Assembly (NCBI GenBank): GCA_902563095.1
Contig: CACEWA010000003.1
Location: forward strand, 1,372 to 65,371
Source of the DNA: an uncultured Candidatus Poseidoniales archaeon
Lineage (GTDB): Archaea; Thermoplasmatota; Poseidoniia; Poseidoniales; Poseidoniaceae
DNA: 64,000 bases
Reading direction: 5' to 3'
Shown: positions 21,905 to 44,108 of the stretch, piece by piece
How positions within the stretch are numbered: the first letter of the stretch is position 1
Layout: every line of letters begins with the position of its first letter
The notes under the pieces: model-generated
What the model was told of the DNA's origin: nothing
What the model saw: only the letters and a program-made list of their open reading frames with translations
Databases searched by the model: none
Position numbers and translations under genes: made by a program

Positions 21905-21912
21905 TTTATCAC

Positions 21913-24960: not shown

Positions 24961-24970
24961 AATATCACAC

Positions 24971-25471
24971 TCAGTTGATTTTCTTTAGAAGACCCGATTC
25001 TTCCAAACTTGAAATATATGCCATCAATGATTCATAACAATCAGGACTGTTAATGAATAGTCCACACTCTGCGCTGTGTTCCATTGCTGTTTTGCTAAAG
25101 TTAGCCGAACCAATGTACATCATGTTCTTATCAACTGCGACGGCTTTAATGTGAAATTTGGAATAGTTTTCATCTGTATCTCGCCAATGCCATATGCTTA
25201 GGTTATCTCGCCAATCGTGAAATAATTCCAAAAATGAATACGCAGTAGTGCTATTGTCACAGAATAATTTGATACTAGGATTAGTCGATATCAGTCTATT
25301 TTTTATCGCTTGCAACAAAACAAAGTCTGTATTCAAGTTCAGATTATATGCCATTATTACCAACTCAAATTTAGTTTTATTTACAAGGCGATTTATGTCA
25401 TCGACAAGATTTGTACCAAATGATGACTCGACCTGGCTAGGCCATGTAAAACTGATTCTTGGATCTACCAA
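24971..25471 (-). CDS. Single-HKD phospholipase D-family nuclease (Nuc/DrmC-like)
   Basis: 166 aa. A perfect HxK(x)4D(x)6GSxN motif: HIKAVAVDKNMMYIGSANFS. The TTG start lies 1 nt after the upstream stop. Confidence 0.8.
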   Translation of the reverse strand: MVDPRISFTWPSQVESSFGTNLVDDINRLVNKTKFELVIMAYNLNLNTDFVLLQAIKNRLISTNPSIKLFCDNSTTAYSFLELFHDWRDNLSIWHWRDTDENYSKFHIKAVAVDKNMMYIGSANFSKTAMEHSAECGLFINSPDCYESLMAYISSLEESGLLKKIN

Positions 25472-25472
25472 T

Positions 25473-28400
25473 TTACCAGCCCCAGTTCCTGTCTAGAAGA
25501 AGATTGGCTAGTTCACAAGAAGTTTCAGGAAGCAAGACACAAGAATGACAAGCAGCACCATTTGGCTCGTCGATATTTGGATGATGATCAGAGCAAACAG
25601 GGTCATTCGAGCAGGTCCTCAATGAGAGAAGAGCTTCTTTTACCAATTTGTGAATTTTACTAGTTGAGGAACCTCTGCGAACCAAACCTCCGAGAGTACC
25701 ATCTGAAGATGGCCCTGAGGTGTACAGCAAAATTCCACAGTAGATTATCTCATCATTTTCGTCAACATCAAAGTACAACCTTTCCCTAATTGAACCAAGT
25801 GAAAAGCCGCTTGACATTGCCAACTCACGAATTAGTGCATGACTTAGTGTGTGCAATATAGTGAATGCAGAGTTATTCTTTGGATCGACTAGTGCGGGTA
25901 TCTGGTGCTTTACATTTCTTAACCTATTATCGTCATTTGAAAAAATCATATCTCTATGAGATGCATTTTCCAATTTACTATCTCTTTGGTTTTTCATACT
26001 TGTCAGCCATTGAGGTTTGAGATCAAAGAATAGCCCTTCGCCGAAATTATACATTCCAATTCCAAACTCTTCATCAGGAGTATTGCCACGGGTTTCAGGA
26101 TGGTCGATGGGTTGGAAATTGCCTTCTTTAGGATCTAACCTGTCTATGCCAAGTATGTACTTCAATTCAGTCAAGCGATTTATTCGCGTTGCACCTCTGA
26201 GAGGCCAGTCCTCATTTTCCCATAGTACTGGGAACTCTCCGAAATTACCTGCGATAGAGGTTTTATCGAAGCGGTGAGTATCGATTGAATTGTTTTCTAC
26301 GTCGGAATCTATTATTCCATTCCTTTCTCTTCCCCTAAGGTTATTCAAAGTCAGGAAATCTTCGTCCATATGTTTGTTCTTGTAATCCCAAAGAACGCGC
26401 AAGAACTTGTCCCAGTTTGGACCAGCTTCCGGATCATCATCGTCATCAAAATATGTTCCTGATAGGTCAACAGGGTCTCCTAAAACTTCTCTGAGTCCAT
26501 GGAACGCATTCTTGAATTCATCGAATGTTTGATCTTCATTTTGTGCCTTTCTTAACAAGCGTTGAATGTTATCGTTATTCGCTAGGGAAAATGATACATC
26601 TGGTGGTATAAGCAATACCGATGAACCTTGAGAATAACTAACAGATACGTTTCCGACCTGTCTGTGAACCATATGTAAATCACATTCCTCTTTGGCATTA
26701 CCACCCGAAGCTAACCAAGGCCTATGGCCATGACATTTTGGCGCATACCTCTTGTTTGACTGCTCAACCCAAGGGACTTTTTCCATACTGTTTTTCGCAC
26801 CACACTCTTCACATATTACAACCCAATCTGCTAGTGTATAGGCACTGTTCTCACCTTCAACCAATTTGATTTTAGCATTACCATGTCTGCAGGGTTTATC
26901 ATAATCAGTGTCATTAGAATGTGCCCAGAAATTATAGTCAAAAGGAGACAAATGACCATTATCACATATGCTGACGAATCTTGAAGGAGATGTGGGTTTT
27001 CCGCATCCAGGTCTTTGACATGTAGACTCCCCATCTTTCGGAATTACTCCATAATGAACATGTCCGTCTTCACAGATGTAGTTTGTTGGGTATTTCGTAA
27101 CGTTGATGGCACCATATTGCTTATTTCCGTCTTTGTAGGGAGGAACAGAACGCAGAACTCGCTGTTTTCCTTCTGGATTAATGCCTAGGATTTGATTCAA
27201 TGCTGGTTCTGCTATACGCAAACCAGGTACCATCTCATTCTTACCATTAAATGCCGCCATGTGATGCTTCTTGTCCTTACTAACACTAATGTCGTTATTC
27301 CATCTGCTAATACCAAGGGTAAGATAAGGCACTCCTCCTTTTTCCCAAATAAACCCTGGGGCCATATGGCTAAACAAATGAGATTCTGGCATTGAGCCTG
27401 ATGCGTATGGCTTCGTGTCATCTTTGTATGGAACATACGAAATTTCTGTCTCTTCTGCTACATCTCTGAAAGAACCCAACCCGTCTTCATAGTCTTCGTT
27501 ATTTGGATTGTTTGTTGTTCTGAAGGGACTCTTGAGCCAAGACAGGGGTTGGTTAACTTTGATGTTCATCCTTTGCCTATCGTTCCAGACTATCCACCAA
27601 GTGACTTTCTCTTGCTCTTTTGCGTTTCGAACGAATCTCTTCAACCCATCCCATTTTTCGTTAATGATATTCTCGCCTTCAGAGATTATTTGCTCTGACA
27701 TTCCTCTTTGTCTCTGCCGTCTGTTTATTTCTTGGATGAACTCAGAAATTATCTCGTCGCCTCTAACTCTGCAGTCTCCGTTCATTATTCTAGTCAAATC
27801 CTTCGTTTTCCTGACTTGACGAATTGATGACCTCAACAATAACATCATTGTAGATGCAAACGCTCTATCTAAAGCTCTGTGAGAGAATGGTGTAATACTG
27901 GTATGATCTACATGTGAATAGATTTCCTGATGGAATGCTCTGAACAATTCGTAATGTGATTGGTCTCTAGGATAATTTCCCTTCAGTAGGGATAGAACCA
28001 TACCTGGATGTTTTCGACCGACTCTTCCACTGGATTGTATATACTCAGAGTTACTTCTTGGTTGTCCGACTATACTCATTAATCCCAGTCTGCCTATGTC
28101 TATACCCACTTGGAACATATTACTAGTTGAAACTACATCGACGACATTCTTTCCAGATGATAAATCGAACTCTAAGTGCTCTTTTGCAATAGATAATTCT
28201 TCACCAGTCTTTCTACTGGTCAATTCCTTCTCTGAATACAATTCTCTTGGCTTACTATCACTATGCTGAGCGAATAACCTAATCATTTGTGGAATGTTTT
28301 TCCTCAGAGACGATTGCCCTCCACCAAGTTCTCTCAAACTGTTGTAATAGAGTACTAGAGTCCAGTATGGATCTAAGTCTTCATCTTTGACTTCACTTTT

Positions 28401-30854
28401 CTCACGTATTGTTGAAATGTTTTGTAACAATGAAGCAGAGGGGTTGTTTAGCAATGATCTAGCCTTACCTTGTGGTGCAATAATTCCAACGTGTAATCTT
28501 CCCCTCGCTTCTTCCTTGGAAATCTCTTTAGCAAAGAAATTGTCTTTTATTGTTAGTAAGGGTGGAGGGAAAATGTTGAGGCTTCTTCCATACATCAAAC
28601 TAGCATCATTTTCTGCACCACGAATGGTTGCAGTGGCTGCAACATACTTTATTCTGTGACCATCGCAAGTATGCTTCCAAGCAACGTCTAAGGCACACTC
28701 TACAAGGCCTGCAATTGTACCTAATGGTCCAGTTAACAAATGTAGCTCGTCCTGAATAATTAGTGACGGAGGTAATGGTCCGCCTCTACTAGATTCGAAT
28801 CCCATCAGTCTTCTTGCATCATAGTCTTCTAATTGCTCCAAAGACAAGTTATATTCAGGTCGATTTTCAACAGAACTCGGAGTAGGATTGAATGCTAATT
28901 GTGCAAATTTATCTGCAGTTCCCAAAAGAATTGATGGAGGATTCATGTAAATATCTTCATCAACACAAGTAAACGGAACTCCATATTCGAAAGGGCATCC
29001 GCTAGAAGCACATTTTACGGAAAGGATTGGGCGTTTTCTCGCCCATGCTGGAGAGTTATCAGGCGTGGTGATCTCATATCTTGATGCATCCCCTACAGAC
29101 TCATCTCCACACCAAGGGCATGTTGGGAATTGTACTACAGTGCAGTCTCCAGATTCTTCCAAAGCCTTGGCTTTGTCAATCACATCCTGTGTCGTATTGT
29201 TCTTTGGATAATTTGGATTTTTGAAGAAATTGTTAGGACTAGTTTCACTACCAATCCACATTCCAACTCTGAATGGAGTGAAACCAAAATCCTCCCCTAT
29301 GCCGTGTTCATCAGCGACAATGTTCATTGCACCACATGCACGTACTAATCTAGCAGATTGGTCTGCTGTCAACAGACGTAACGTATACCGCATGATTGAA
29401 TGGACGCCTGGAGACTGAATCTCTCTTGCTACGGTCTCTGGGTCTAATCTGCGATAAAAAGAGCAGACTGCAAGGAGACCCAAGTACGCTTCCGTCTTAC
29501 CTCCTCCAGTAGGGAACCAAGCTAAATCAACTATTTCTTTCTCCTCGCCACCTTTAGACAAGAGACCTTTGATATTCAATAATTGGAAGCATATCTGGAA
29601 AGGTCTCCATTTGAAATTATCAATTCTGTATGTGTCAGTAAGCCTACTGTCGGTTTGTGAAATATTGATTGCTTTATTCGCAAGGACAAATGCCTCTCTC
29701 GCAATCTCGTTATCCTTTAGATACTCAATTCCATCAGAGATTCTGGATATGGTGCTATCGACGTGGCCCATGTGCTTATCAAAAATATCCTCATAGTGGT
29801 CAAATAGTGATGGATCATAATCGGAAAAGCGTATACTTTCGCTGGCTGACCATTCTCTGTATCTTTTCATAAATTGTTTCATTTTGTTTAATGCAACAAT
29901 TACTGTTTCTGGGTTTGAAAATTCATTCATCGAGGGTATCAAATCATCTAAAGAAGAGTCTGCTTTCATTACTGGAACCTCAAATGATGGCAAAAATTCC
30001 GTCCAAACTGAGGAATCATCTTCCCAGTTTACGCCTACATTGTGCCCCTTAGCATAAATTGAGGAATCGCTGTATAGCAGAGCCATACTCTTGTCATTAT
30101 CAACAACGTCAGGGGATCTTACTTCCGAAAATATTGAGCTTAAATGAATAACCGGCTGGTGAACTGTTCCACATGCTGCTTCCAAATGTTCTGATTTTGA
30201 ATAAACTCTGTTGTTGACCATTCTAATGGTAATTGTTTCATCGTCTATGCCTCGCTTAACGAACAACTCTAACCCTTCGGAACCTTCGATGTCAATTCTA
30301 TGCTCACGCTGGTTTTTGAATAATAATTCGTTTATTTCGAAATCAAACTCGTATGGACTGCGAACCCATGTTCGCATATCTCCATCCTTGTCTGCAAGTT
30401 CATACTGGCCCCATGATAGATTGACTAGTACCGGGTGGCCCGATAAATCCGATGGCTTTACTGTTAATCCAATAGACCTTGGAGAGAATGAATTTCCAGG
30501 TGAAGAAACTCTCGAATTTATGTGTCTCAAATCCTCTTCAGAGGATTTTGCTGACTCTCCGTTGAATTTTTCTGGAGGAAGATCCTCATCTTTTGAGTTG
30601 AGTAAATCGACATCTTTGTTCTGAATTTCTTCATCAACAGGTTTTGATTCTTCAGCCTTAGCGGGCGAGATGTACCCGCAAAAGTAGTAAGTGTATGGAG
30701 AATTTCTTTGTAGATTCAAGACCTCTACAGGGTTTTCTTCTGTAGTTCCCTCTTTCCAGCTTGGTCCAACGAGATCTCTCTTTAGTGCCTTGAATAGGTA
30801 ATCTCGAACTTGAGATTTGGTGTCTAATGATTTTGGCGCCGACTGTTTGTCCAT
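25473..30854 (-). CDS. 1793-aa DEAH-box SF2 helicase fused to a C-terminal DUF1998 (MrfA-type zinc) module; resembles a DrmA-DrmB fusion or DruE
   Basis: Walker A is FPTGGGKTEAY, DExH is IIQDELHLLTG, motif VI is QSSGRVGRK. A Cys-rich insert follows. The C-terminal CSNDPVCSDHH...GAACHSCVLLPETSCELANLLLDRNW matches the four-Cys DUF1998 pattern. Confidence 0.8.
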   Translation of the reverse strand: MDKQSAPKSLDTKSQVRDYLFKALKRDLVGPSWKEGTTEENPVEVLNLQRNSPYTYYFCGYISPAKAEESKPVDEEIQNKDVDLLNSKDEDLPPEKFNGESAKSSEEDLRHINSRVSSPGNSFSPRSIGLTVKPSDLSGHPVLVNLSWGQYELADKDGDMRTWVRSPYEFDFEINELLFKNQREHRIDIEGSEGLELFVKRGIDDETITIRMVNNRVYSKSEHLEAACGTVHQPVIHLSSIFSEVRSPDVVDNDKSMALLYSDSSIYAKGHNVGVNWEDDSSVWTEFLPSFEVPVMKADSSLDDLIPSMNEFSNPETVIVALNKMKQFMKRYREWSASESIRFSDYDPSLFDHYEDIFDKHMGHVDSTISRISDGIEYLKDNEIAREAFVLANKAINISQTDSRLTDTYRIDNFKWRPFQICFQLLNIKGLLSKGGEEKEIVDLAWFPTGGGKTEAYLGLLAVCSFYRRLDPETVAREIQSPGVHSIMRYTLRLLTADQSARLVRACGAMNIVADEHGIGEDFGFTPFRVGMWIGSETSPNNFFKNPNYPKNNTTQDVIDKAKALEESGDCTVVQFPTCPWCGDESVGDASRYEITTPDNSPAWARKRPILSVKCASSGCPFEYGVPFTCVDEDIYMNPPSILLGTADKFAQLAFNPTPSSVENRPEYNLSLEQLEDYDARRLMGFESSRGGPLPPSLIIQDELHLLTGPLGTIAGLVECALDVAWKHTCDGHRIKYVAATATIRGAENDASLMYGRSLNIFPPPLLTIKDNFFAKEISKEEARGRLHVGIIAPQGKARSLLNNPSASLLQNISTIREKSEVKDEDLDPYWTLVLYYNSLRELGGGQSSLRKNIPQMIRLFAQHSDSKPRELYSEKELTSRKTGEELSIAKEHLEFDLSSGKNVVDVVSTSNMFQVGIDIGRLGLMSIVGQPRSNSEYIQSSGRVGRKHPGMVLSLLKGNYPRDQSHYELFRAFHQEIYSHVDHTSITPFSHRALDRAFASTMMLLLRSSIRQVRKTKDLTRIMNGDCRVRGDEIISEFIQEINRRQRQRGMSEQIISEGENIINEKWDGLKRFVRNAKEQEKVTWWIVWNDRQRMNIKVNQPLSWLKSPFRTTNNPNNEDYEDGLGSFRDVAEETEISYVPYKDDTKPYASGSMPESHLFSHMAPGFIWEKGGVPYLTLGISRWNNDISVSKDKKHHMAAFNGKNEMVPGLRIAEPALNQILGINPEGKQRVLRSVPPYKDGNKQYGAINVTKYPTNYICEDGHVHYGVIPKDGESTCQRPGCGKPTSPSRFVSICDNGHLSPFDYNFWAHSNDTDYDKPCRHGNAKIKLVEGENSAYTLADWVVICEECGAKNSMEKVPWVEQSNKRYAPKCHGHRPWLASGGNAKEECDLHMVHRQVGNVSVSYSQGSSVLLIPPDVSFSLANNDNIQRLLRKAQNEDQTFDEFKNAFHGLREVLGDPVDLSGTYFDDDDDPEAGPNWDKFLRVLWDYKNKHMDEDFLTLNNLRGRERNGIIDSDVENNSIDTHRFDKTSIAGNFGEFPVLWENEDWPLRGATRINRLTELKYILGIDRLDPKEGNFQPIDHPETRGNTPDEEFGIGMYNFGEGLFFDLKPQWLTSMKNQRDSKLENASHRDMIFSNDDNRLRNVKHQIPALVDPKNNSAFTILHTLSHALIRELAMSSGFSLGSIRERLYFDVDENDEIIYCGILLYTSGPSSDGTLGGLVRRGSSTSKIHKLVKEALLSLRTCSNDPVCSDHHPNIDEPNGAACHSCVLLPETSCELANLLLDRNWGW

Positions 30855-30893: not shown

Positions 30894-30907
30894 TGTAAAA
30901 TTTTACA
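30894..30907. promoter_or_regulatory. Perfect palindrome TGTAAAATTTTACA (TGTAA-N4-TTACA), candidate operator/promoter element
   Basis: Read directly. It lies in the 74-nt gap between the Cas10-like gene stop (30929) and the helicase-DUF1998 start (30854), 39 nt upstream of that ATG. Confidence 0.45.
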
Positions 30908-30928: not shown

Positions 30929-32950
30929 TTAGACAGGGTGTTGGTATAGTACAGAACCGCCGTTCAGTTCTACGAAACCGTCGTCGTCTGCAACTTTATC
31001 ATACTGCTTCTTTGACCCGTCATATTCCTCAATCATCCAACCTTTTGTTGAATCTTCATCGATTTTTTGCTTCCAAAACCGTTTTGCCCTCTTCTCAGCC
31101 GATTTAGACTTTCTCATCATATTCATAATGTTGTCATCAACATCTTTCGTTGACAAACCGGCTCCAAAGCTTAACTCAAAAGGAGCATATTCGGATTCTG
31201 AAAGTTCGCCAAGCTTTTGGGATAAGTCCTTGATTACTCGTCGCAATTTGGGTGTTGGGTTTTTCCCTACAGGAACATAATCTGCTAGGATTATGTCGTC
31301 CCCTGCAGCCACCCAGGCTACGATTTGATCTATCTTCAAATCTTGATTATCTAATGCGTCATTTACTATTGACCACCATTGGCTGTTGAATCTCATAGAC
31401 CTTCTACGCTTAGTATCAATACTGTTGTCAACTTCATGTTCACGAGACCTCGTAAACAAAACGCCAAGTGAGTTCAAATCTAACCTTGCAACGCCATTTA
31501 CCGTTCTTTGGTAATTATTGGTGAACGACTGAGGTAATCCAAACTCCTTAGTGGTCGAATCAATCATTCGTTGTGCTTTACCTATGTTATACAATAGGCG
31601 GTGGAAATTGCAATACGGGTTTGATGAGTCGTTAATTTGATTGTCACGATTGAATGCATTGCCGACCAATTCAACATCTTCCGAACAAATACAACAATCA
31701 GAATTTACTATCTTCTGGAAATCTATTTTCTCGGGGATATCGTCATCAACTACTATTGAAAGCACAGGTAGGTGGCGTATAATCCAATCTTTAATCACTT
31801 TATTTCGTTTTGATTCATCTTTCCATTGGCCAGGACCAATCTCGTAGATTTGGCCGAAATCGGATGCTGACAGTTTGTCTGATATTTTCCGAGATAGAGT
31901 TCTTGTTACCATTTCTAATTCGTTCTGGAAGTATGGTTGATGATTATTCGAGATTAAGAATACTCGATAGAAAGCATCTTCTAACATTCCTTTGGCAGAG
32001 GAATCGCCAAAAAATTCTATTCTTCCTCCTCCATCAATAATTATTGATTCGACACCATATTTCTCAATTATGTTGAACCTAAATCGTGACATCACACTCT
32101 CAAGAATTGCTGATGCACCACGTATAAATGCGGCGTCATCATTCCATTTTTGATACTTGTCAGACCAATTTGTAATCCAACTTTGGATGCTTCTCATCTT
32201 CACACTTACCCTCGTACCATTTATGCAATTCATCAGATCTTCGTTATCTACCCAACCTATACAATATTTCTTTGGCCGATGTTTTGAACGAATGGTTGGG
32301 ATTTTTTTATCGCCATCCCATTCACTCCATTTGTTTCCGATTATGTCTTTGACTTCATCTCTTGGCCAAAATGCAGCAATCCTGCTCTGATCATTTGAAT
32401 GGATGGCTAACAATAATTTGTGTTCTTTGTCAGAAAATGAATTTTCTGGACTTTGTTCTAGACCACGTATAGATAACAATAATATTGACAAAAATCTCCT
32501 ATGAGCCGCCTGAAATTCTTTTCTAGAATTGTCTTCTTCTGCTTTTGATTCTAATTCATTTACCAATCGTAATGCCGATATCTTTTCTTTAGACTGAGTT
32601 AGATTGGTCTTCATATCATGTGCTTTATTCAGCAAAGCACTACGTAAGCTAGTTGCAGAACCATCAGGAGAGTGAATTGAATCTAGATAGAGTGTTAGTC
32701 TCAATGCTTTTGCAGCCTTACTGCTAAGTGGCCAATCTAAAGGGTACCTTCCTACGTCTATCTCTGGATACCCCGCAATGATCTGTACGAGGCGATTATG
32801 TCTGACTGAAGCATCAAGTTTTACCGTTTCCTCGCCAGGCCAGTTCAAAATGAATTCTCTAATCAAATCTAGAGGGTGCTCACCTTCCTTCAATATCTCG
32901 GATGAAGAAAGTGGCGGCGAACCTTCGAACCACGGATTTGGAGCGCCCAT
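30929..32950 (-). CDS. Cas10-like (GGDEF/polymerase-palm) candidate cyclase, no evident HD domain, not CRISPR-associated in this window
   Basis: 673 aa. Motifs in order: ESIIIDGGGRIEFFG (Palm1-like), Cys/His cluster DCCICSED...NPYCNFHRLLYNIGK (position of the Cas10 zinc finger), VARLDLNSLGVLF (DxD/N-x-h-G strand), RRRSMRFNSQWW, WVAAGDDIILADY (GGDD equivalent). The ORF itself is solid. The family call is motif-level only. Confidence 0.5.
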   Translation of the reverse strand: MGAPNPWFEGSPPLSSSEILKEGEHPLDLIREFILNWPGEETVKLDASVRHNRLVQIIAGYPEIDVGRYPLDWPLSSKAAKALRLTLYLDSIHSPDGSATSLRSALLNKAHDMKTNLTQSKEKISALRLVNELESKAEEDNSRKEFQAAHRRFLSILLLSIRGLEQSPENSFSDKEHKLLLAIHSNDQSRIAAFWPRDEVKDIIGNKWSEWDGDKKIPTIRSKHRPKKYCIGWVDNEDLMNCINGTRVSVKMRSIQSWITNWSDKYQKWNDDAAFIRGASAILESVMSRFRFNIIEKYGVESIIIDGGGRIEFFGDSSAKGMLEDAFYRVFLISNNHQPYFQNELEMVTRTLSRKISDKLSASDFGQIYEIGPGQWKDESKRNKVIKDWIIRHLPVLSIVVDDDIPEKIDFQKIVNSDCCICSEDVELVGNAFNRDNQINDSSNPYCNFHRLLYNIGKAQRMIDSTTKEFGLPQSFTNNYQRTVNGVARLDLNSLGVLFTRSREHEVDNSIDTKRRRSMRFNSQWWSIVNDALDNQDLKIDQIVAWVAAGDDIILADYVPVGKNPTPKLRRVIKDLSQKLGELSESEYAPFELSFGAGLSTKDVDDNIMNMMRKSKSAEKRAKRFWKQKIDEDSTKGWMIEEYDGSKKQYDKVADDDGFVELNGGSVLYQHPV

Positions 32951-32975: not shown

Positions 32976-33368
32976 TTAGTTTTCATCCCTTCCAAGATTA
33001 ATCATATCTAACGAAATGCATGTCACTCCTTCTTGAGTAAACCAAATTGTACCAGAGATTTTCGCGCTTTGCATAAATTGCTTAAGAGAATCTCCTCTCA
33101 TCCAATCTCTAATAGCTGTGCCACCATTAAAACCATGGATAAACCTGACACCGCGCTTCAGATCTGCTTTTGCATCTCTCAATTCTTCTTTGATTCGATT
33201 TTTTGCATTATGTAGAGCCAAATCATGAAGATTGACAGTTAAATATCCTGAATCGTCCCCAACATTTTGCCTAAAGGTACGTGGAGTTGGACGGTTTCGA
33301 TTAGTCCTTCTCTTATGGTGGTTTTTTCCATGTAGGAATCTATCCATCTGAAATTTCCTATTACTCAT
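32976..33368 (-). CDS. Smr (small MutS-related) domain-like protein with a basic N-terminus
   Basis: TVNLHDLALHNAKNRIKEELRDA...RGVRFIHGFNGGTAIRDWM resembles the Smr pattern lDLHGl..eeA...l.......v.iIHGkG.G.L. I chose the ATG at 33368, which forms an ATGA overlap with the kinase stop. The track start is 33407. Confidence 0.5.
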   Translation of the reverse strand: MSNRKFQMDRFLHGKNHHKRRTNRNRPTPRTFRQNVGDDSGYLTVNLHDLALHNAKNRIKEELRDAKADLKRGVRFIHGFNGGTAIRDWMRGDSLKQFMQSAKISGTIWFTQEGVTCISLDMINLGRDEN

Positions 33369-33982
33369 TGGAAAGCCTCCTGAATAATTTCTAATGCCTC
33401 TTGACAAACCTCATCAGGACTTTTGTTACTAGTGTCGATAACTACTGGCTTGAATTTCAGATATGTTTCAAGCACCTTCTCACGCTTAATTTTGCTAGCA
33501 GCTAATTCTGATTCTTCCTTTGTTTCAGCCTCGCCACGCCCATGCAAACGAGTCAAACGATTCTCCTCATCTACTGTGAGTAGTATTAACAAATCGGGCC
33601 TCCTAATCTCGTCGGGATATTGTCCAATCTCAATATCGTGTTCGAATCCTTCATCCATCGCAGCAAATGCTGCAGTACTAGTCCAATATCTATCCATAAT
33701 CACATGCCTATCAGAAATTACATTGGTCACTTGCTCACTTGCTACCAAGTTCGAAAAACGATAATATGCTCTGCGTTGGAGCGGGTTCAATGAATCAAAA
33801 TGAGTTCTTGCAGACCCCTCTTTAATTGAGGGAATATTGATCTCTGGTGGGCAAGAAAGTTGGGCAGCATTAAGGTAAACACTCAACTTCTCAACTAGTG
33901 TAGACTTACCAGTAGCATCAAGACCTTCGATTACGATGAACTTATTCACAAAGCCACCCCCATTGAATTCTCCCAATCCCAT
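33365..33982 (-). CDS. Nucleoside monophosphate kinase (thymidylate kinase-like P-loop)
   Basis: 205 aa. FIVIEGLDATGKSTLVEKL is the dTMP-kinase-type P-loop context. It overlaps the viperin gene 3' end. Confidence 0.8.
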   Translation of the reverse strand: MGLGEFNGGGFVNKFIVIEGLDATGKSTLVEKLSVYLNAAQLSCPPEINIPSIKEGSARTHFDSLNPLQRRAYYRFSNLVASEQVTNVISDRHVIMDRYWTSTAAFAAMDEGFEHDIEIGQYPDEIRRPDLLILLTVDEENRLTRLHGRGEAETKEESELAASKIKREKVLETYLKFKPVVIDTSNKSPDEVCQEALEIIQEAFQ

Positions 33983-34860
33983 TCTCCGCCTCGAGCATTG
34001 AAGGCTTCTAGTGAAAATCCTGGACTTACCTCATTCCAACAATGAGCGAAACCATTTTCTTGAACGGTGCCTTCTGAGTAAAAATAGAATCCATCTTTGT
34101 TTGTATATACTCGGCCAAGTGCATCGATCATCGCATAAGTCCCAAGCATAGCATCATTATTTTCTGGTACTACTTGGATTGAGGTAGAACTAAGCGAGGA
34201 GACATGACGAGAGATATATTCCTCAAAATTATGTTCTGATACCAGAAGAGCTTCTACTCGCCCATCATTTTCTCCATCAATCTTCAGAACTTGGAAAATC
34301 TTCCATCGAGTTGGGTTGATTTGCTTAACTACATCGGTCATATCATCATGCACATTTGCTGAGGTGACCACAGTGTTTAGCTTGATTCCATATCCTAGTT
34401 TGTTAGCCATCTTTGCAATTTCCAAAGCTCGACCCAAATGCCCAGATTCACCATTCTTGAATTCATTAGCATTTGCTCGGCCCATGATTGCATGGATTTG
34501 ATCATTTGAAGCGTCTACAGAAAGCCCCAGCCAGTCAAGGTATGGGCGCATGGATTCGAGCCATTCTTGACTCATCTTAGTACCATTCGAAACGATACTG
34601 GTAGTCATACCTACACGCTTTGACTCCTTAATCCATTCATCTAGGTGAGGATGAAGCATAGGCTCCCCCCCAACGAAATTAATCTTCTCTACTCCTTGAG
34701 ACGCTAGGTCCTGGATGATCTTTAATCCTGCTTCCAAGTCAATCTTTGGCTGCAGACGTTGCTGTTCAAATCCTGCATAACAGAACTTGCAGCGGTAGTT
34801 GCAAAATGCTTCGCAGTGCCAATTTACGGCCTTAGGGATTGTGATGTTGTTTTGTGACAT
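33946..34860 (-). CDS. Prokaryotic viperin homolog (pVip), radical SAM
   Basis: AVNWHCEAFCNYRCKFCYA (viperin-type CNYxCxFC), INFVGGEPMLHP, SIVSNGT, KLNTVV, RWKIFQVLKIDGEND (compare human viperin RWKVFQCLLIEGEN), and a C-terminal Trp-rich tail. I chose the ATG at 34860. The track TTG start is 34887. Confidence 0.85.
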   Translation of the reverse strand: MSQNNITIPKAVNWHCEAFCNYRCKFCYAGFEQQRLQPKIDLEAGLKIIQDLASQGVEKINFVGGEPMLHPHLDEWIKESKRVGMTTSIVSNGTKMSQEWLESMRPYLDWLGLSVDASNDQIHAIMGRANANEFKNGESGHLGRALEIAKMANKLGYGIKLNTVVTSANVHDDMTDVVKQINPTRWKIFQVLKIDGENDGRVEALLVSEHNFEEYISRHVSSLSSTSIQVVPENNDAMLGTYAMIDALGRVYTNKDGFYFYSEGTVQENGFAHCWNEVSPGFSLEAFNARGGEWDWENSMGVAL

Positions 34861-34893
34861 CACTACTATCAGATATTTCAAAGACAAATACCC

Positions 34894-34907
34894 TGTAAAT
34901 TATTACA
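34894..34907. promoter_or_regulatory. Perfect palindrome TGTAAATTATTACA (TGTAA-N4-TTACA) in a divergent promoter region
   Basis: Read directly. It sits between the pVip ATG (34860) and the HNH gene ATG (34945), about 33-38 nt from each. Confidence 0.45.
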
Positions 34908-34944
34908 CTGATTAGGGGATTGTGATAAATCTTTGATTGAGATT

Positions 34945-35898
34945 ATGCTGATCCACGAGCAAGAATACCTAACTATGTTAGAAACTGCATTCAACTTTCT
35001 ATTTCGAAAGGGGAAGCCAGTAAACGGTTCTCCACTAAATCAAGCTAGGCATGAATTTGTTATCACAAACGGAGGATTTTGCCTACATTGTGGCATGAAG
35101 TTGACTCGAAATAATTCTAACACCGAACACATCCATGATCGCGCTCTGGGAGGTATTAACAAGTCTGTAAACAAGGTGATTATGTGTACTTCATGTAACC
35201 TAGCTAGGAACAAGACGATGCAAATTTACCTTGGCTCACCGAGTTACTGGCAAGGTTTCCCAGGGAATTGGGACCGGGTTAAGAAGTATCTTCTTTGGAA
35301 TGCTGTAACAGTAGACAAGGGTCATAACGCGGGAGAGGCTTATCCTGAAGTACACCAAATCTTCGAATCGATTTTACAAAGTAACGGAAATCTGATCAAG
35401 CCGCCAAATCATTGGTTTGGGCGTGGTGATAATTGTGACCTGATTGTTACAAAGCCAAAGCAACGTGGATTTTGGATTCGTATTTTTGACAAAATCTTTG
35501 GCTATGAATCGCCACAAGATACACCCGTAATTACTGTGAATAAAACCAACCTATTGCAGACGGAAGAGAAGAAAGTTAAGGCCGAACGAAAAATTCTGGA
35601 TTTGGATGATGATTTCCGCCATCACATTCTAAACGCATTTAGTAGCATCCAGGGGGAAATTGACCTTGCTACATTTTCAAGTTATTTTCAATTGTATCTC
35701 GTTAGCAAGGATATGCCTAAGCAATCATTGAAGCAATTTGCACGTTCATTCGGAATACCAAAGCGTCGCTCTTTCATCGAAATTATTGAAGACTATTTCC
35801 CAAATGAAATTGAATATCGCCGTGTAGGACAAACCGTGGTTTATATTTCTGCGAAAAATCGTGAGGTTTTTGAATATCTTGCCGATGAAGATGAATAG
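34945..35898 (+). CDS. HNH endonuclease domain protein with an uncharacterised C-terminal domain
   Basis: CLHCGMKLTRNNSNTEHIHDRALGGINKSVNKVIMCTSCNLARN gives the CxxC...H..H...N...CxxCN HNH layout. The ATG at 34945 was chosen. The track TTG start is 34933. Confidence 0.75.
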   Translation: MLIHEQEYLTMLETAFNFLFRKGKPVNGSPLNQARHEFVITNGGFCLHCGMKLTRNNSNTEHIHDRALGGINKSVNKVIMCTSCNLARNKTMQIYLGSPSYWQGFPGNWDRVKKYLLWNAVTVDKGHNAGEAYPEVHQIFESILQSNGNLIKPPNHWFGRGDNCDLIVTKPKQRGFWIRIFDKIFGYESPQDTPVITVNKTNLLQTEEKKVKAERKILDLDDDFRHHILNAFSSIQGEIDLATFSSYFQLYLVSKDMPKQSLKQFARSFGIPKRRSFIEIIEDYFPNEIEYRRVGQTVVYISAKNREVFEYLADEDE

Positions 35899-35912
35899 AA
35901 TGGTGGTCGATA

Positions 35913-36899: not shown

Positions 36900-37738
36900 T
36901 TAATGTGGAAATGGTAAAAGAAATTACTTCCATTTCGCACGATGGGTTTCAAAGCATGTGGTACCCATTCCATTTCGAGAAAGAATTACAAATTAACATA
37001 ATAAATTGTGAATATTTTCGAGAAGGTATCGATTTAATCAAATTAGTACATTGGATGTTTGCAACAAATAATCACAATACTAATACGAGAATCGATAACT
37101 CAAAATCACTTGGAATTTCACAATTAGTTCAATGTAGTGTAGAATTTGTCACTGACAAACATCGATACCTACTGTCCAGAATCTTTCATGACAAGTTTTC
37201 TATCGAAGCTAAATTAGAGGTGTTGGATTCTACAAACGTATACTTTGGAGAAGATGCAATTCGTACTATTCAAAAAATGACAAGACCGATAGTTGTCCCC
37301 AGCGATAGACGAATAATGAGCTCGCTAATTCTTAAGCCACAGGATAACTATTCAAGACAAAGTATGCTAAATTTAGTCGACTTATGGTCTAGATCTCTTG
37401 GCTTTGAAAATATCAAAATTGGATTAACTCCAATTGGACATTGGTCTTATTATCACTCTCGTAAAGAGATAGAGAATAAGCCTCGTCCATCATTATTGAT
37501 GTTGCTTTCAAATCTTGCCCAGGCCACAGTTAGAAAAAGAAAATTTGGTAGGTGTCCTGCCGTCATCTGTTTTGCAGAGATGCACGACCTAAATCAATTA
37601 GAGATAGATTCTGTTATCGAATTGATCTCTACCATTTGCAAAGAAGAAAGACTAAGTTTTGTTCTAGCAACTTCTTCCATTGAAGAAATAGATGTAGAAA
37701 GTGTAAGTAACACCCCTAGGTTTGCAATCTACCGATAA
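36893..37738 (+). CDS. Hypothetical protein, possibly a degenerate paralog of the preceding ABC ATPase (no Walker A)
   Basis: 281 aa, overlapping the upstream gene by 7 nt. The N-terminal KEITSISHDGFQSM...ELQINIINCEYFREGIDL mimics the ABC N-terminus but lacks GxxGxGKS. PAVICFAEMHDL is Walker-B-like. Confidence 0.4.
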   Translation: MVINVEMVKEITSISHDGFQSMWYPFHFEKELQINIINCEYFREGIDLIKLVHWMFATNNHNTNTRIDNSKSLGISQLVQCSVEFVTDKHRYLLSRIFHDKFSIEAKLEVLDSTNVYFGEDAIRTIQKMTRPIVVPSDRRIMSSLILKPQDNYSRQSMLNLVDLWSRSLGFENIKIGLTPIGHWSYYHSRKEIENKPRPSLLMLLSNLAQATVRKRKFGRCPAVICFAEMHDLNQLEIDSVIELISTICKEERLSFVLATSSIEEIDVESVSNTPRFAIYR

Positions 37739-39035
37739 TTTTGTCAAAATTTTCAATTATACGGACTGCATCAGAAGTCAACTCTTTTTTCCACCATGGA
37801 AATCCATTTAATTTTGGGAACAAAAATTTCCTGTGAAGTACATTTCTTCTTTCCAGACCTAATATACTTCCAGCACAATAAGATATGCATAATGCTTCAA
37901 TAGATCCAGCTGCAAAAAACTCATAATTCTGAATTGAGAATGTGTTCTTAAATTTCATTGTCGAATGAATATGTTCCAACAATGATTTTGTCTCATTACC
38001 ATTTCCTTTTGGAATATTAATTTCCATCTTACGCAACCGCTTTAGTAAATTTGCTGATGCTTGAATCAACTGTTGGCTCTCTTCATCTCCGATAAGTACA
38101 TCATGAGAATGATCGACTATTATTCCAACTAGATTGGTAATCGTTTGAAGACTCGGCTCAATAGATAATGATTCTATCTGAGCAATATGATAATTGGTAA
38201 TGGGGTTTATCCAATCGTTCATCTTACGCATTAACTGAATATTTCCAATACTCATTCTTCTAGCAAAAACCCAGAATGGTTCTACATTATTCCAATCCCA
38301 AGATTTGTGAAGATAAGTGCATATCAACGCATATGCCAATCTTTTGTTCGGCCTGCCATTATTATCCATTTCATGTAACATAAATGAGTCAATCAGAGAG
38401 TCGAACCAATCTCGTCTAAATTCCATCGGTGTTGGCCTTTCCACTTCTGATTCAGGCGGCTCTACGTGCTTTTCTACTTTCATTTTTGCAAGTTCATAGT
38501 TTGACTTTAAATCGTCAGTTCCTACGCTATGAAAACGTTCTATGCCATGATATCGTAATCTATTACCAACAAAATAGGGAGGAGACATTTTTCGATATCG
38601 CTCTTCTGTTATTGCACTTCTGTAAAGAGATTTGAGTTTGTACTTATTGGAAAAATCCCTGTAATAACCAATAGATTTTTGTCTTTCTAAACCATCAGAA
38701 ACTTCTTGATCTGTTAATTTCCGACGCTTCAATACCATAGCTAAAGTCTTGTGGCCTACCTGATGGAAAAATTCGGTGTTAGTATAATCGTTTTTATCTA
38801 GATTTTCATCCTGTAATTTCCCATAATCTATTGCGCAGGAAATGCAAATGCCGTAGGGTGCTTCACTAGGATTAAATCCATGATCAATTAAATCATCCTC
38901 AGAAGTTAAATGGATCCCATTAGTTGTGCATTCATCACACCACAATAATTCCTGGTTTTGAAAATCTTCTTCAGTTTCTATACGTGATTGATTGAAGTAC
39001 TCATCATATACATCAGTACTATCCAAAATAATCAC
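37716..39035 (-). CDS. Hypothetical 439-aa protein with an N-terminal zinc-ribbon-like Cys pairs
   Basis: CDEC...CISC near the N-terminus. The GTG start overlaps the upstream stop (GTGA at 39032..39035). No other motif recognised. Confidence 0.5.
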   Translation of the reverse strand: MIILDSTDVYDEYFNQSRIETEEDFQNQELLWCDECTTNGIHLTSEDDLIDHGFNPSEAPYGICISCAIDYGKLQDENLDKNDYTNTEFFHQVGHKTLAMVLKRRKLTDQEVSDGLERQKSIGYYRDFSNKYKLKSLYRSAITEERYRKMSPPYFVGNRLRYHGIERFHSVGTDDLKSNYELAKMKVEKHVEPPESEVERPTPMEFRRDWFDSLIDSFMLHEMDNNGRPNKRLAYALICTYLHKSWDWNNVEPFWVFARRMSIGNIQLMRKMNDWINPITNYHIAQIESLSIEPSLQTITNLVGIIVDHSHDVLIGDEESQQLIQASANLLKRLRKMEINIPKGNGNETKSLLEHIHSTMKFKNTFSIQNYEFFAAGSIEALCISYCAGSILGLERRNVLHRKFLFPKLNGFPWWKKELTSDAVRIIENFDKIIGRLQT

Positions 39036-40690
39036 TCCAAATCTAAGTCATGCGTTGCCCAATTAGCTACAAATTCACCCAATTCTGTTAATACAAATCG
39101 AGATTTCCCAACATCATTTATTTTGGTTATCAATTGATTCGAAATTAAATCTGCAAAACGTGTTTGATTTTGTTCAATACTTATTTGTCTCCCTAACATT
39201 TCGCTTAGTATACTAGCGAACTCCGATATATCACTAAATGTCAGTCCAATATTCTCCTCAGGATTTGCTGATGCAAATAGTAGGTTTTCAATGCTACCAT
39301 CATCATCTTGGCTAAATCTACCCTTTTCGAATTCATTCATTACAATTAAAGAATTTATTTTGCTACTAGCCAATCCTTGCAAAGATTCAAACGCCAAGGA
39401 GGAGGGGATTTCAAGAACATGATCAGTTCTCGAAAATGGCGACCTTGTAACTTGCTCTCCAGTGGCGCCTACTCCCTTGTTCGATTTCATAACATAGCAA
39501 ATTTTGGAACCAGAGGCTAAGGAAAATTTAGAAGCAGAGTTTCTAAGTTTTGCAAAACAAGAAGTCAAATCAATAGACCAAAGATGCTCATCTGTTTTGT
39601 ATTCATATGAAATTATTGATTTGAATAATTCAATCTCAAAATCCAGCATAGATTGATTATCTAACGTCGGATTTACTACAATCAATGGCTCTATTAATTC
39701 GATATCTTCGATTTGAGCTTTCTTGTCCAACAACAATTTGCATTTTTCTAAATCTCTATGCATTCCAGACAACTCTTTTTTTCCAAGTGCCTCTGAAAAA
39801 GTTAATACTCCACTATAGGCTAAATCATCTGAATATCTTTGTAAAACGAAAAGATAACTGTCATGAGGTTCTATTTTTGACATAGTCTGCAGCATATTAA
39901 TTGGCCCGTCATTGAATAATCTGCCAAATGAAATTAGTAATTTTTTGAATACAGGATCACCTGAATCTTGTCGATTTTTCATCCAATATTTCAAAGCAAT
40001 CGGAAAACCCTTGCTTGTTAAAGAGTAGAGTGGGGGCCTGCTTGCATCCCTATTAACAGTGATCATGCCCCTTGATTCGCAGGCTGTAGCAGCAGATTGC
40101 ACACCAGACATCTCTGTAATATTATCTAACTCACAGATTTCTTGGGCTGAGAATTCTGTACCAAAATTTGTACCTGATAATTGAAGAATTGCAGACATTA
40201 TTTTTGGCGCTATTGCTGAATCAATGTATTTTTTATTGTGAAAATATGATTCCAATTCCCCGCCCTCCCAATGATAAAATTTCTCACATTGTATTGAACT
40301 TCCAACTAACCATAGCAAGTAATCGTGTAAAGCTGTGCCTGAGCCAAGCAAGATATCTTTATCCCCGACTATACCGGTTAATGCTTGAAACATTTGTTTA
40401 GAAATGTTCCAGGAAAGGGCCTGTAGTTGATCTGAATTTTCATACCCTTCTGTGGTCAAAGATGGAAGTGAGAATATCGAGGTTGATAATGCCAACTTTT
40501 GTTGAATCTCCTTAGAAGAGTCATTAGGATATACTGAAAATAAGATTAACGAATCGGCATTAATCATTTCAATTCTTTCTAAATCATTAGATCTAAATGT
40601 ATGAGGCGCGATGGCCAATAAAGTTCTCATGTTATTATCTCCTATGAGTTTGTGGTTATTAGAGATGTACTCTACTTTATGAGATACCAT
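39032..40690 (-). CDS. Duplicated CARF-like Rossmann + winged-helix protein (CARF-wHTH-CARF-wHTH candidate)
   Basis: The first half has MRTLLAIAPH..., ILLGSGTALHDYL (G-x-G-T after a strand, as in CARF TGGTK), then a wHTH-like AQEICELDNITEMSGVQSAATACESRGMITVNRDASRPPLYSLTSKG. The second half has LLISFG...YLFVLQRY and a C-terminal wHTH-like LISNQLITKINDVGKSRFVLTELG. Start is uncertain: TTG 40723, ATG 40690 or ATG 40630. Confidence 0.45.
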   Translation of the reverse strand: MVSHKVEYISNNHKLIGDNNMRTLLAIAPHTFRSNDLERIEMINADSLILFSVYPNDSSKEIQQKLALSTSIFSLPSLTTEGYENSDQLQALSWNISKQMFQALTGIVGDKDILLGSGTALHDYLLWLVGSSIQCEKFYHWEGGELESYFHNKKYIDSAIAPKIMSAILQLSGTNFGTEFSAQEICELDNITEMSGVQSAATACESRGMITVNRDASRPPLYSLTSKGFPIALKYWMKNRQDSGDPVFKKLLISFGRLFNDGPINMLQTMSKIEPHDSYLFVLQRYSDDLAYSGVLTFSEALGKKELSGMHRDLEKCKLLLDKKAQIEDIELIEPLIVVNPTLDNQSMLDFEIELFKSIISYEYKTDEHLWSIDLTSCFAKLRNSASKFSLASGSKICYVMKSNKGVGATGEQVTRSPFSRTDHVLEIPSSLAFESLQGLASSKINSLIVMNEFEKGRFSQDDDGSIENLLFASANPEENIGLTFSDISEFASILSEMLGRQISIEQNQTRFADLISNQLITKINDVGKSRFVLTELGEFVANWATHDLDLE

Positions 40691-40704: not shown

Positions 40705-40718
40705 TGTAAATTATTACA
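40705..40718. promoter_or_regulatory. Perfect palindrome TGTAAATTATTACA (TGTAA-N4-TTACA)
   Basis: Read directly and identical to the 34894 site. It lies between the stop of the 251-aa CARF gene (40730) and the first ATG (40690) of the next gene. It is inside the ORF only if the TTG at 40723 is the real start. Confidence 0.45.
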
Positions 40719-41528: not shown

Positions 41529-41546
41529 GATGTAAAAATTTACATC
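41529..41546. promoter_or_regulatory. Palindrome GATGTAAAAATTTACATC (contains TGTAA-N4-TTACA with 7-nt arms)
   Basis: Read directly. It lies about 46 nt upstream of the CARF-wHTH gene start (41485), in the divergent intergenic region 41486..41707. Confidence 0.45.
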
Positions 41547-44107: not shown

Positions 44108-44108
44108 T

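Follow-up and report, generated by a model that had tools for sequence, protein, structure and literature searches.

The window analysed here, a stretch of 64,000 nucleotides from an uncultured Candidatus Poseidoniales archaeon (contig CACEWA010000003.1), contains a gene for a 673-residue protein that we call Cas10L. Judged from sequence profiles and a structural model, Cas10L is a genuine, very divergent homolog of Cas10, and over the window and the related loci it is apparently independent of CRISPR. It is the last gene of an operon that begins with a prokaryotic viperin (pVip), and genes for CARF proteins recur in its neighbourhood. By a modest measure, we favour the view that Cas10L is an active, CRISPR-independent Cas10-type oligonucleotide synthase, the product of which would be sensed by CARF proteins. 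For this analysis, about 100 related loci (L numbers) were gathered, their open reading frames (ORFs) were called and the neighbouring proteins were clustered (c numbers). The resulting census comprises 82 distinct target loci, 80 of which have at least one flanking gene. The positions of the main features are given in Table 1.

Homology and domain layout of Cas10L

The motifs quoted in the original prediction, which had described a stand-alone Cas10-like palm protein, are real and lie in the right order in the 673-residue product: IIIDGGGRIEFFG (residues 302-314), DCCICSED...NPYCNFHRLLYNIGK (417-458), VARLDLNSLGVLF (487-499), RRRSMRFNSQWW (515-526) and AAGDDIILADY (548-558). The model, the Foldseek search and the profile alignments agree on a Cas10 relative with paired palms, a zinc cluster between them and intact Palm2 catalytic residues. 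The Cas10L of the window matches the Pfam model Cas10-Cmr2_palm2 (PF22335) with an E-value of 0.011 (16.3 bits, residues 486-624) and the PADLOC model of Cas10 with 2e-4, both of which are sub-threshold. When 33 members of the family were scanned singly, Cas10 models were the sole recurring families: PADLOC Cas10 in 11 members (best E-value 2.5e-8), Pfam palm2 in seven (best 1e-7), and Pfam Csm1_B, the domain located between the palms of Csm1, in three. For the window protein, no match to Pfam mCpol or to GGDEF (PF00990) was obtained even at E<=10; one relative is labelled 'GGDEF domain-containing protein' in one database.

A family profile of 33 sequences gave zero matches to PDB sequences, and a broader profile of 52 sequences succeeded. 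At E<0.2 it found Cas10 exclusively, including type III-D Cas10 (8s9t_C, E=9e-4) and Csm1 of S. thermophilus (6ifk, E=4e-3), and the lone non-Cas10 row had an E-value of 0.24. In Palm2, the family sequence 'lDgNslGilF' is placed over 'ADGNGLGQIL' / 'LDVDDLGAAF', 'RRSfrFN' over 'RRLSLALD' / 'RSATFS', 'AGDD' over 'GGDD', and 'SFaaG' over 'SACAG' / 'LSAG'. In Palm1, 'kIQtWI ... DGGGRisf' is placed over 'GIQDFI ... VGGGHAYF' of Csm1.

The full-length structure, modelled with AlphaFold2 from the family alignment, is confident (pLDDT 87.3, pTM 0.89). Foldseek retrieved 46 PDB matches at E<=1e-3, every one of them a Cas10 chain (from Csm1 of several species, Cmr2 or type III-D Cas10), with alignments covering 450-800 columns. 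No significant match to Cas10L was found in a viral structure library, where RNA-dependent RNA polymerase (RdRP) and PolA reached prob <=0.16. The sole local match of high probability in that library, to a GGDEF palm over 139 columns (prob 0.98), reflects the shared palm fold alone. An unrelated fold, an RdRP or reverse transcriptase-type polymerase, or a structure lacking paired palms had been named beforehand as outcomes that would speak against a Cas10 relative; the searches returned neither of the first two, and the paired palms are present in the model.

The original prediction also saw no HD nuclease, and this is borne out. The N-terminal 245 residues, modelled alone, form a helical domain (pLDDT 89.9) for which the PDB offers no structural relative (best E=1.2); this confident model without a relative confirms the absence of an HD nuclease, and there are neither HD matches nor an HD dyad among the conserved residues. 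H51, D72, D90 and H184 were considered as possible metal ligands of such a nuclease, which was rejected because the separate model resembles neither HD nor any other known domain. Based on the model, this N-terminal domain of about 240 residues is new. Past Palm2, the model shows merely about 70 residues, which form two helices and a hairpin, so the helical D4 domain that contacts Cas11 is apparently truncated.

The Cas10L family and its CRISPR context

A word-indexed search found 36 relatives of Cas10L. When 1.84 billion representatives were searched exhaustively with a profile, 199 relatives were found at E<=1e-3, with 114 at E<=1e-30; such a number among 1.84 billion indicates a small, discrete family, well apart from canonical Cas10. 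The members with a named organism or genome all belong to Poseidoniales or to unclassified marine archaeal metagenome-assembled genomes, and no relatives were found on viral contigs. Residue conservation was computed over 52 members, which have a mean column identity of 18%. Residues S280, G307, G308, D491, N493, G496, R516, W525, G550, D551 and D552 are invariant, and D306, G309, R310, C419, C422, C447, H450, F499 and A549 are conserved in at least 90% of the members. The most conserved part of the family is the N-terminal helical domain, with W37, P38, R53, G60-Y-P62, P70, D72, D90, S101, R103, S185 and W195 invariant.

The window contains no CRISPR array according to Tandem Repeats Finder, Rfam and a short-range direct-repeat scan, as had been stated, and no CRISPR-like array was found in the 884 kb formed by the related loci and the window. 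The single CRISPR-like repeat flag, in L053, falls inside the gene of a repeat protein (c3). The further statement that no other cas genes are present holds for the 29 ORFs of the island scanned with PADLOC, CARF excepted; for the flanks of the window, it is judged from the best 25 of 63 PADLOC families, which are all methyltransferases. There were no RAMP or Cas matches to hidden Markov models (HMMs) among the PADLOC-scanned neighbours, nor any RAMP or Cas families in the Pfam annotations of the related contigs examined.

CARF proteins in the neighbourhood of Cas10L

Four CARF-like proteins had been reported from the island. One of them, CARF251 (40730-41485), is confirmed by CARF HMM matches, and the other three are not. 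A second candidate, u563, is CARF-like by eye alone, on account of the motif 'LLGSGTALH'; no support came from PADLOC or Pfam, from searching PDB sequences with its profile, or from hhalign with the profiles of CARF251, c12 and c10, and u563 has no Pfam, PADLOC or PDB relatives. The next gene product, u439, was considered as a HEPN RNase and rejected because its 'RRNVLH' stretch is not conserved in the family. CARF251 shows weak PDB-sequence similarity to Crn1 ring nucleases over its GITGGT motif, and its residues 175-220 show weak similarity to winged helix-turn-helix (wHTH) proteins (E=0.04 to 1). From its sequence, CARF251 is a candidate signal receptor or regulator.

The proposal that Cas10L feeds CARF sensors is supported, as regards a functional link, by comparative genomics, since CARF neighbours are recurrent. 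As in the window, the same island carries a CARF251 homolog in each of the 11 close-clade loci with about 9 kb of upstream sequence. In 19 of the 80 loci, Cas10L has a CARF-type gene directly beside it. CARF251 homologs directly adjoin Cas10L in the same direction in L009, L029, L077 and L085, and lie downstream in L070/71. Four distant loci (L007, L033, L035 and L038) share a six-gene operon with the order u563-c30-Cas10L-c10-c23-c26, in which the zinc-ribbon protein c30 stands immediately before Cas10L (L007/L033/L035). In the clade of the window, CARF251, u563 and u439 form an operon a few kb off, with the HNH/ATPase and viperin modules between it and Cas10L. The recurrent direct partners c10 and c23 match Csx1, CARF3 and CARF_PDDEXK with E-values of 1e-4 to 2e-5 and exhibit PD-(D/E)xK motifs. 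Based on hhalign, c10short, the N-terminus of c10long, c47 and c12 make up one domain family.

In L001-L004, L008, L022, L026 and L030, a pair of genes that is not present in the window island is located between CARF251 and u563. These encode c13 (about 400 residues), in which a nuclease motif of the form D...ExK is present, and c12 (about 240 residues, CARF-like, 'ISGSTN'), the latter being related to c10 and c47 by hhalign. From these motifs, the pair looks like a split CARF/nuclease effector.

The viperin operon

As originally described, HMM matches place Cas10L between the Smr, kinase and viperin genes on one side and the DrmA-DrmB fusion with the PLD protein DrmC on the other. Its proposed physical wiring to viperin- and DISARM-like genes stands for viperin, within one tight operon of the close clade only, and fails for DISARM, the cassette of which is swappable. 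The order pVip-kinase-Smr-Cas10L is found in 12 of 12 distinct close-clade loci, with overlaps or spacers of 25-48 nt, and in three more loci that were reached from the Smr side (L098-L100). In the window, the start of the Smr gene overlaps the kinase stop codon (ATGA), and 25 nt separate Smr from Cas10L. This four-gene block is kept across 34-83% Cas10L identity. The viperin linkage is clade-specific, being found in 12 of the 82 distinct loci.

The first two genes overlap and encode a pVip radical-SAM enzyme and a nucleotide kinase, the latter being an optional member of viperin operons. The small third protein is, by its profile, a true Smr: numerous PF01713 proteins are picked up by the family profile, and one close homolog bears the name 'DNA-nicking Smr family endonuclease'. 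Distant Smr homologs (155 and 126 residues; L094-L097) are lone genes amid housekeeping genes, so the operon copy was probably recruited from a cellular paralog. Between L001 and the window, identity amounts to 88% for pVip, 76% for the kinase, 73% for Smr and 35% for Cas10L. The same sharp fall in conservation at Cas10L relative to the upstream genes is observed when the window is compared with L001, L006 and L016, which is suggestive of rapid evolution, or else of allelic replacement, at the margin of the variable region.

Proposed activity of Cas10L and alternatives

As in Cas10, Cas10L would possess a single active site between a non-catalytic Palm1 (GGG loop) and a catalytic Palm2 (D491, N493, G550-D-D552). 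There, nucleoside triphosphates (NTPs), with ATP as the probable substrate, would be linked into an oligonucleotide messenger, either cyclic or linear, which would be read by CARF proteins encoded nearby. In the window, the candidate reader is CARF251, with its CARF domain and putative winged helix, along with u563 and u439 from its operon; elsewhere in the family, this part may fall to the CARF-PD-(D/E)xK-type proteins that adjoin Cas10L. The family-specific N-terminal domain is the best candidate for the sensor. As Cas10L is the last cistron of pVip-kinase-Smr-Cas10L, signalling and the production of viperin chain terminators would be expressed together. The activity, its product, its receptor and its trigger are inferred; for an active synthase sensed by CARF proteins, we rely on the Cas10 active-site layout, on the strict conservation of the residues that are replaced in inactivated Cas10s, on the co-retention of CARF genes, and on the repeated operonic adjacency of CARF-type genes in branches that are separate within the family. 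Cas10s that lose their cyclase residues are reported to lose CARF genes as well (PMC12669027), whereas both are kept here.

Several observations weigh against an active synthase that signals to CARF proteins. The Cas10L of the window remains under the gathering score of PF22335 (16.3 vs 27 bits), its global TM-scores to Cas10 are merely about 0.3, which indicates an inter-domain packing unlike that of Cas10, and its catalytic motif is AGDD, not GGDD, the first glycine being replaced by alanine. The CARF identity of c10, c23 and c12 comes from weak single-sequence matches, and profile searches of PDB sequences with c10long and c23 gave no match. The CARF gene of the window lies about 8 kb off, in another operon, and no obvious toxic effector was identified in the window. 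The commonest co-directional neighbour of distant Cas10L genes is c3, a thrombospondin-repeat membrane protein, and in a hypervariable hotspot little weight can be given to adjacency by itself. Without target RNA and its Csm/Cmr partners, canonical Cas10 shows practically no activity, and the analysed loci revealed no activator of this kind for Cas10L.

With regard to the trigger, the main alternative, by analogy, is constitutive synthesis as in Panoptes. Cas10L would then act as a guard, the product of which holds a CARF-containing effector or regulator off, and defence would be triggered once the signal is depleted by viral sponges or ring nucleases. The mCpol enzymes, which are the sole experimentally characterised CRISPR-independent Cas10-like cyclases, act in this manner, including with a CARF-TM effector and cyclic triadenylate (cA3) (PMC12657230, PMC12657218, PMC13577387). 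In agreement with a guard, no activator complex is encoded beside Cas10L among the PADLOC-scanned neighbours, and Cas10L evolves far faster than its operon partners (35% vs 73-88% identity in L001), which would fit an arms race. In contrast, mCpol is a single dimerising palm, whereas Cas10L exhibits the asymmetric two-palm layout that is under tight allosteric control in Cas10, and its large, highly conserved extra N-terminal domain resembles a sensor or regulatory module. Moreover, no membrane effector was recognised in the window, where transmembrane prediction was not run. Taken together, we consider a guard of this kind rather unlikely.

The operon itself raises the possibility that Cas10L is a subunit of an extended viperin system. 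The palm polymerase could act on or with 3'-deoxy-3',4'-didehydro-NTPs (ddhNTPs), for example by adding a ddh-nucleotide to ATP or to an oligonucleotide, by analogy with the synthesis of S-adenosylmethionine (SAM)-AMP by some Cas10s, or it could sense infection and gate viperin. The four genes are tightly packed, apparently under a single promoter, in 12 distinct loci and in every Smr-side locus with the block, and Cas10 active sites can take non-ATP substrates (SAM-AMP, cited in PMC13577387). Nevertheless, about 68 of the 80 loci have no viperin nearby, and in the accessible text of the viperin literature searched, kinases are the sole partners reported and neither a Cas10-like nor an Smr partner is mentioned. 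In addition, the divergence of Cas10L is decoupled from that of pVip, which suggests modular exchange and not the co-evolution of an enzyme pair. A role in viperin chemistry is thus possible for the clade of the window and cannot explain most of the family; we consider this reading improbable.

It is very unlikely that Cas10L is an inactivated Cas10 derivative serving as a scaffold: the replaced first glycine of GGDD, the extreme divergence and the precedents of inactivated Cas10s (PMC12669027) would fit, but D491, G550, D551 and D552, which are replaced in inactivated Cas10s, are invariant here, and CARF genes, which are lost upon inactivation, are still nearby.

Features of the island

Table 1 Features of Cas10L and of its neighbourhood, with positions in the window and the evidence for each assignment
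Feature	Position	Strand	Evidence or remark
Cas10-like gene Cas10L, 673 aa	30929..32950	-	ORF; Cas10 HMM matches across the family; Foldseek; family profile against PDB sequences
N-terminal family-specific helical domain of Cas10L, residues 1-245	32216..32950	-	Sits where many Cas10s carry the HD nuclease
Palm1-like domain of Cas10L, about residues 246-400, KIQSWI and D306-GGG-R310	31751..32215	-	Secondary structure of the model; alignment with Csm1 Palm1
CCCH zinc-cluster segment of Cas10L between the palms, C419, C422, C447, H450	31595..31702	-	At least 90% conserved; Csm1_B matches
Palm2 cyclase domain (predicted) of Cas10L, about residues 482-605, D491xN493SLG496xxF499, R516RSxRFN, A549-G-D-D552, SFGAG	31136..31507	-	Pfam palm2; PDB-profile alignment
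pVip, prokaryotic viperin, operon gene 1	33946..34887	-	PADLOC pVip 2e-74; Radical_SAM 8e-24
Thymidylate-type nucleotide kinase, operon gene 2	33365..33982	-	Pfam Thymidylate_kin 2e-17; PADLOC PDC-M51B 3e-27, VakA 2e-16
Smr-domain protein, 130 aa, operon gene 3	32976..33368	-	Pfam Smr E=0.003; DLH and IHGFxGGTAIR motifs
DrmA-DrmB fusion and DrmC, DISARM-like cassette	24971..30854	-	PADLOC DrmA 1e-164, DrmB 2e-63, DrmC 1e-12
CARF251, CARF protein, 251 aa, probable C-terminal winged helix	40730..41485	-	PADLOC CARF3 2e-11, Csx1/Csm6 7e-10
u563, in operon with CARF251	39032..40630	-	In a distant clade, homologs belong to the Cas10L operon and lie two genes upstream of Cas10L
u439, zinc-ribbon protein after u563	37716..39035	-	CxxC...CxxC invariant; positional counterpart of c30
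Perfect palindrome TGTAAAATTTTACA	30894..30907	.	22 nt past the stop of Cas10L and 40 nt ahead of the DrmAB start
Palindrome TGTAAATTATTACA, divergent pVip/HNH promoter region	34894..34907	.	About 31 nt upstream of pVip in L003, L016, L022, L030
Palindrome between CARF251 and u563	40705..40718	.	56-69 nt upstream of u563 in L003, L026, L030
Two palindromes upstream of CARF251	41531-41544, 41652-41665	.	Conserved upstream of CARF251 in L006, L026, L030

The DISARM-like cassette and its replacements

Downstream of Cas10L, the gene order is DrmA-DrmB, DrmC, DEAD helicase, GmrSD/DUF262 protein, 564-residue protein (u564) and a P-loop giant of 2057 residues, which ends beside the phosphoglycerate kinase. 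The first part of this series (19988-30854, - strand) is an atypical DISARM-like cassette, also present in L016 and L098, which comprises a fused DrmA/DrmB of 1793 residues, a short DrmC of 166 residues (PLD family), a DpdF/PsyrT-like DEAD helicase (1015 residues) and a GmrSD/DUF262 protein (638 residues), without an adjacent methyltransferase, DrmD or DrmE. The second part (12185-20049, - strand) comprises u564, of about 520-560 residues, and the P-loop giant of about 2050 residues (AAA_22, AAA_19, weak NACHT/nSTAND matches). Where the DISARM cassette is absent, the latter pair directly follows Cas10L (L003, L006, L015 and L017), and in L006 it overlaps the Cas10L stop. In the window, DISARM appears to be inserted between Cas10L and the u564-giant pair.

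DrmAB follows Cas10L in the same direction in the window, L014, L016, L018 and L098-L100. It is replaced by u564 and the NTPase of about 2050 residues in L003, L006, L015, L017, L020, L027 and L044, and a different, convergent DISARM-like set is present in L001, L008, L021, L023, L025 and L026; most of the family has none of these downstream cassettes. The Cas10L of L003, which is followed by u564, is 69% identical to that of L021, which is followed by c18, whereas the DrmAB-linked Cas10L proteins are mutually 42-51% identical, save for the near-identical relatives of the window (L014, 83%). As the Cas10L phylogeny ignores the type of cassette, DISARM is a swappable neighbour, and DrmAB-DrmC is an adjacent yet separable module outside the Cas10L unit.

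That Cas10L is an accessory subunit of DISARM, a functional counterpart of DrmE or DrmD working with the DrmAB helicase complex, is extremely unlikely: its same-strand position directly upstream of the DrmA-DrmB fusion in the seven loci listed above, and the occurrence of Cas10L-DrmAB-DrmC without viperin in P0012, would fit this role, but DrmE and DrmD HMMs do not match Cas10L, the obligate co-occurrence with DrmA, DrmB, DrmC and a methyltransferase fails, since most relatives lack DrmAB, have it replaced or have it in a convergent position, and a conserved promoter-like palindrome separates the two genes. The suspicion that Cas10L is a divergent DrmE, raised by its position upstream of drmA, was likewise rejected on the neighbourhood census and the comparison of phylogeny with cassette.

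A methyltransferase of the type II / N6_N4 DNA family lies beside the phosphoglycerate kinase (9893-10846, - strand), as judged by synteny with positions 21089-21875 of L003, and one ORF of the window flanks matches PADLOC MTase_II with an E-value of 6e-107. As the methyltransferase is also found in L003, a locus without the DISARM cassette, it is probably not a DISARM methylase.

A palindrome shared by the operons of the island

The palindrome TGTAAA-WW-TTTACA recurs in the island. With at most two mismatches, the window contains 12 matches, compared with 2.2 expected, and 12 matches were reached in none of 100 shuffles. All five matches with at most one mismatch are intergenic and lie in the island; weaker matches are located at 37742, 19970 and 46572. 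In the related loci, 28 of 39 matches are intergenic, though intergenic bases make up only 4.5%. The palindrome at the junction of Cas10L with the next cassette is also present in L003, before u564, and in L014, before DrmAB. None lies inside pVip-kinase-Smr-Cas10L; with one on each side, this supports a single four-gene transcription unit, and the palindrome between Cas10L and DrmAB supports a separate promoter for the latter.

These observations suggest that the palindrome is a shared operator of the island operons. CARF251 is the obvious candidate for its binder, given the weak winged-helix similarity of its C-terminal part, and the palindrome may be the operator of this CARF-wHTH protein or an element that marks module boundaries. 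The oligonucleotide made by Cas10L could even be an island-wide second messenger, read by CARF251 bound at these sites, which precede CARF251, u563-u439, the divergent pVip/HNH operons and the cassette after Cas10L (DISARM-like or STAND NTPase). Several unrelated defence modules would then be turned on or off jointly by a single nucleotide signal; we regard such a regulon as quite unlikely.

Setting of the island and other neighbours

The AT-rich island extends over about 12-42 kb of the window, with a GC content of 0.34-0.41 compared with 0.44-0.47 in the flanks. At 34933-37738 on the + strand lie the genes for an HNH endonuclease, for an ATPase of the AAA_23/SMC type (weak GajA/PtuA/LmuB-like matches) and for a 281-residue protein. 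These genes are divergent from the viperin operon, are kept in related islands and look like a separate ATPase-nuclease defence module. At the right edge (42260-46523, + strand), a 615-residue protein (u615), an AAA ATPase (364 residues) and a DUF2201 metallopeptidase with a VWA-like protein (436 residues) form a set that resembles a MoxR-type ATPase/VWA pair; homologs of u615 also flank related islands (L006, L098 and L099). Rfam matches a single element of the window, a tRNA gene close to the right end (63364-63438, - strand).

Distant Cas10L genes have other neighbours. Their usual convergent flank is c1, a JAB/MPN-domain protein of about 555 residues with a shorter paralog (27 loci, e.g. 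L010, L011, L046, L048 and L074). In L041-L043, c1 is co-directional and upstream, with a 4-nt overlap with the Cas10L start in L042, and a functional link between c1 and Cas10L is possible. These varied neighbours, together with the recurrent JAB-gene flank, indicate that Cas10L occupies a fixed hypervariable hotspot. Directly upstream of Cas10L and co-directional in seven distant loci (L010, L057, L072, L083, L084, L089 and L091) is c16, a STAND-type NTPase of about 1250 residues (GEGGLGKTELV Walker A, LIIDNHE Walker B, IIITTR), which is a possible sensor partner of Cas10L. The idea that c16 is a Cas7-11-like fusion, as in subtype III-I, was rejected, as its Walker A/B and 'TTR' motifs are typical of STAND NTPases and it has no RAMP matches. 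The c3 protein (about 930 residues; L050, L052-L056, L065, L076, L080, L081 and L093) exhibits a signal peptide, thrombospondin-type-3-like repeats (about 12, calcium-binding and rich in Asp), a transmembrane segment and a tail on the cytoplasmic side; it was rejected as an effector, since these are the traits of a surface protein.

Significance and comparison with known systems

Two settings of Cas10-type messenger synthesis are known: type III complexes activated by target RNA and the single-palm mCpol of bacterial Panoptes. If Cas10L is an active synthase, it would represent a third way of controlling Cas10 chemistry, in which a full two-palm Cas10 with its zinc domain acts without an RNA-guided complex, either lost or never had, while possessing a newly gained, conserved N-terminal domain and keeping CARF genes close by, and it would be the first archaeal example outside CRISPR. 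It would also bear on the proposal that type III effectors arose from a signalling module made of a Cas10-like cyclase and CARF. The free-standing pair of a two-palm Cas10 and CARF could be a surviving relative of a pre-CRISPR signalling system, a notion which, in a single estimate made jointly with that for the island-wide regulon, we hold to be quite unlikely. The operon physically links Cas10 chemistry to viperin, an immune enzyme common to eukaryotes, and provides a handle on antiviral defence in Poseidoniales, a group that counts among the archaea of highest abundance in the surface ocean. As a single polypeptide is involved and the prediction is simple (NTPs converted into an oligonucleotide in a manner dependent on D551/D552), the question is directly testable.

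The combination was first thought to be undescribed. CRISPR-independent Cas10-like cyclases that signal to CARF proteins are already known as mCpol/Panoptes, so this part of the claim has to be qualified; those are single-palm bacterial proteins. Neither an orphan full-length Cas10 nor a viperin-Cas10-like operon came up in a full-text search of the open-access literature. The linkage of pVip with a nucleotide kinase is already known (bioRxiv 10.1101/2023.09.13.557418). Compared with these viperin-kinase systems, the upstream genes here are a bona fide pVip and a nucleoside monophosphate kinase, and the difference lies in the Smr protein and the Cas10-like polymerase of the operon, neither of which appears in the accessible text of the literature searched.

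Cas10 itself (Csm1, Cmr2 and type III-D) is the sole structural match of Cas10L in the PDB. It exhibits Palm1, the zinc-binding domain and Palm2 in the identical order and has CARF genes nearby. The Palm1 IQxFI/GGG elements and, in Palm2, DxD/N-xLG, the GGDD-type hairpin, S-x-G-hydrophobic and E-x-x-AK can be aligned residue by residue. In contrast to Cas10, Cas10L has no detected Cas5, Cas7 or Cas11 genes, CRISPR array or HD domain, carries about 70 residues in place of the helical D4 domain and AGDD in place of GGDD, possesses a unique, strongly conserved N-terminal helical domain of 240 residues, and scores below the curated family threshold. Given the lack of RAMP partners, array and HD domain, the apparently truncated D4 and the sub-threshold score, Cas10L lies outside the operational definition of a CRISPR subunit. 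The reduced type III systems (III-G, III-H, along with III-I) also have a highly diverged Cas10, and III-G is array-less as well (PMC12669027). Those systems retain Cas7/Cas5 or Cas7-11i, with the cyclase inactivated or lost and the CARF partners lost, whereas the Cas10L loci keep the cyclase residues and CARF genes, with no RAMP proteins detected.

Csa3a/b of Sulfolobus are Csa3-type CARF-wHTH transcription regulators. CARF251 resembles them in combining CARF with a probable winged helix and in the palindrome found in island promoters, including its own. It differs in that its wHTH assignment is weak, its DNA and ligand binding are predicted, and no cas genes are under its control.

By analogy, Cas10L would work most like mCpol of Panoptes I and II, which are likewise Cas10-related palm cyclases outside CRISPR, linked to CARF and located in defence islands (PMC12657230, PMC12657218, PMC13577387). 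mCpol is a homodimerising single palm encoded in a two-gene bacterial operon with a 2TM-beta or CARF-TM effector, whereas Cas10L combines two distinct palms and a zinc cluster in one chain and is archaeal, with variable multi-gene contexts. The operon of the window has four genes, and CARF is directly adjacent in some distant members only. Owing to its two palms and zinc domain, the lack of an mCpol profile match, its archaeal origin and its different operon, Cas10L is not a member of the mCpol family, and the shared features point to a two-palm, archaeal counterpart of these enzymes.

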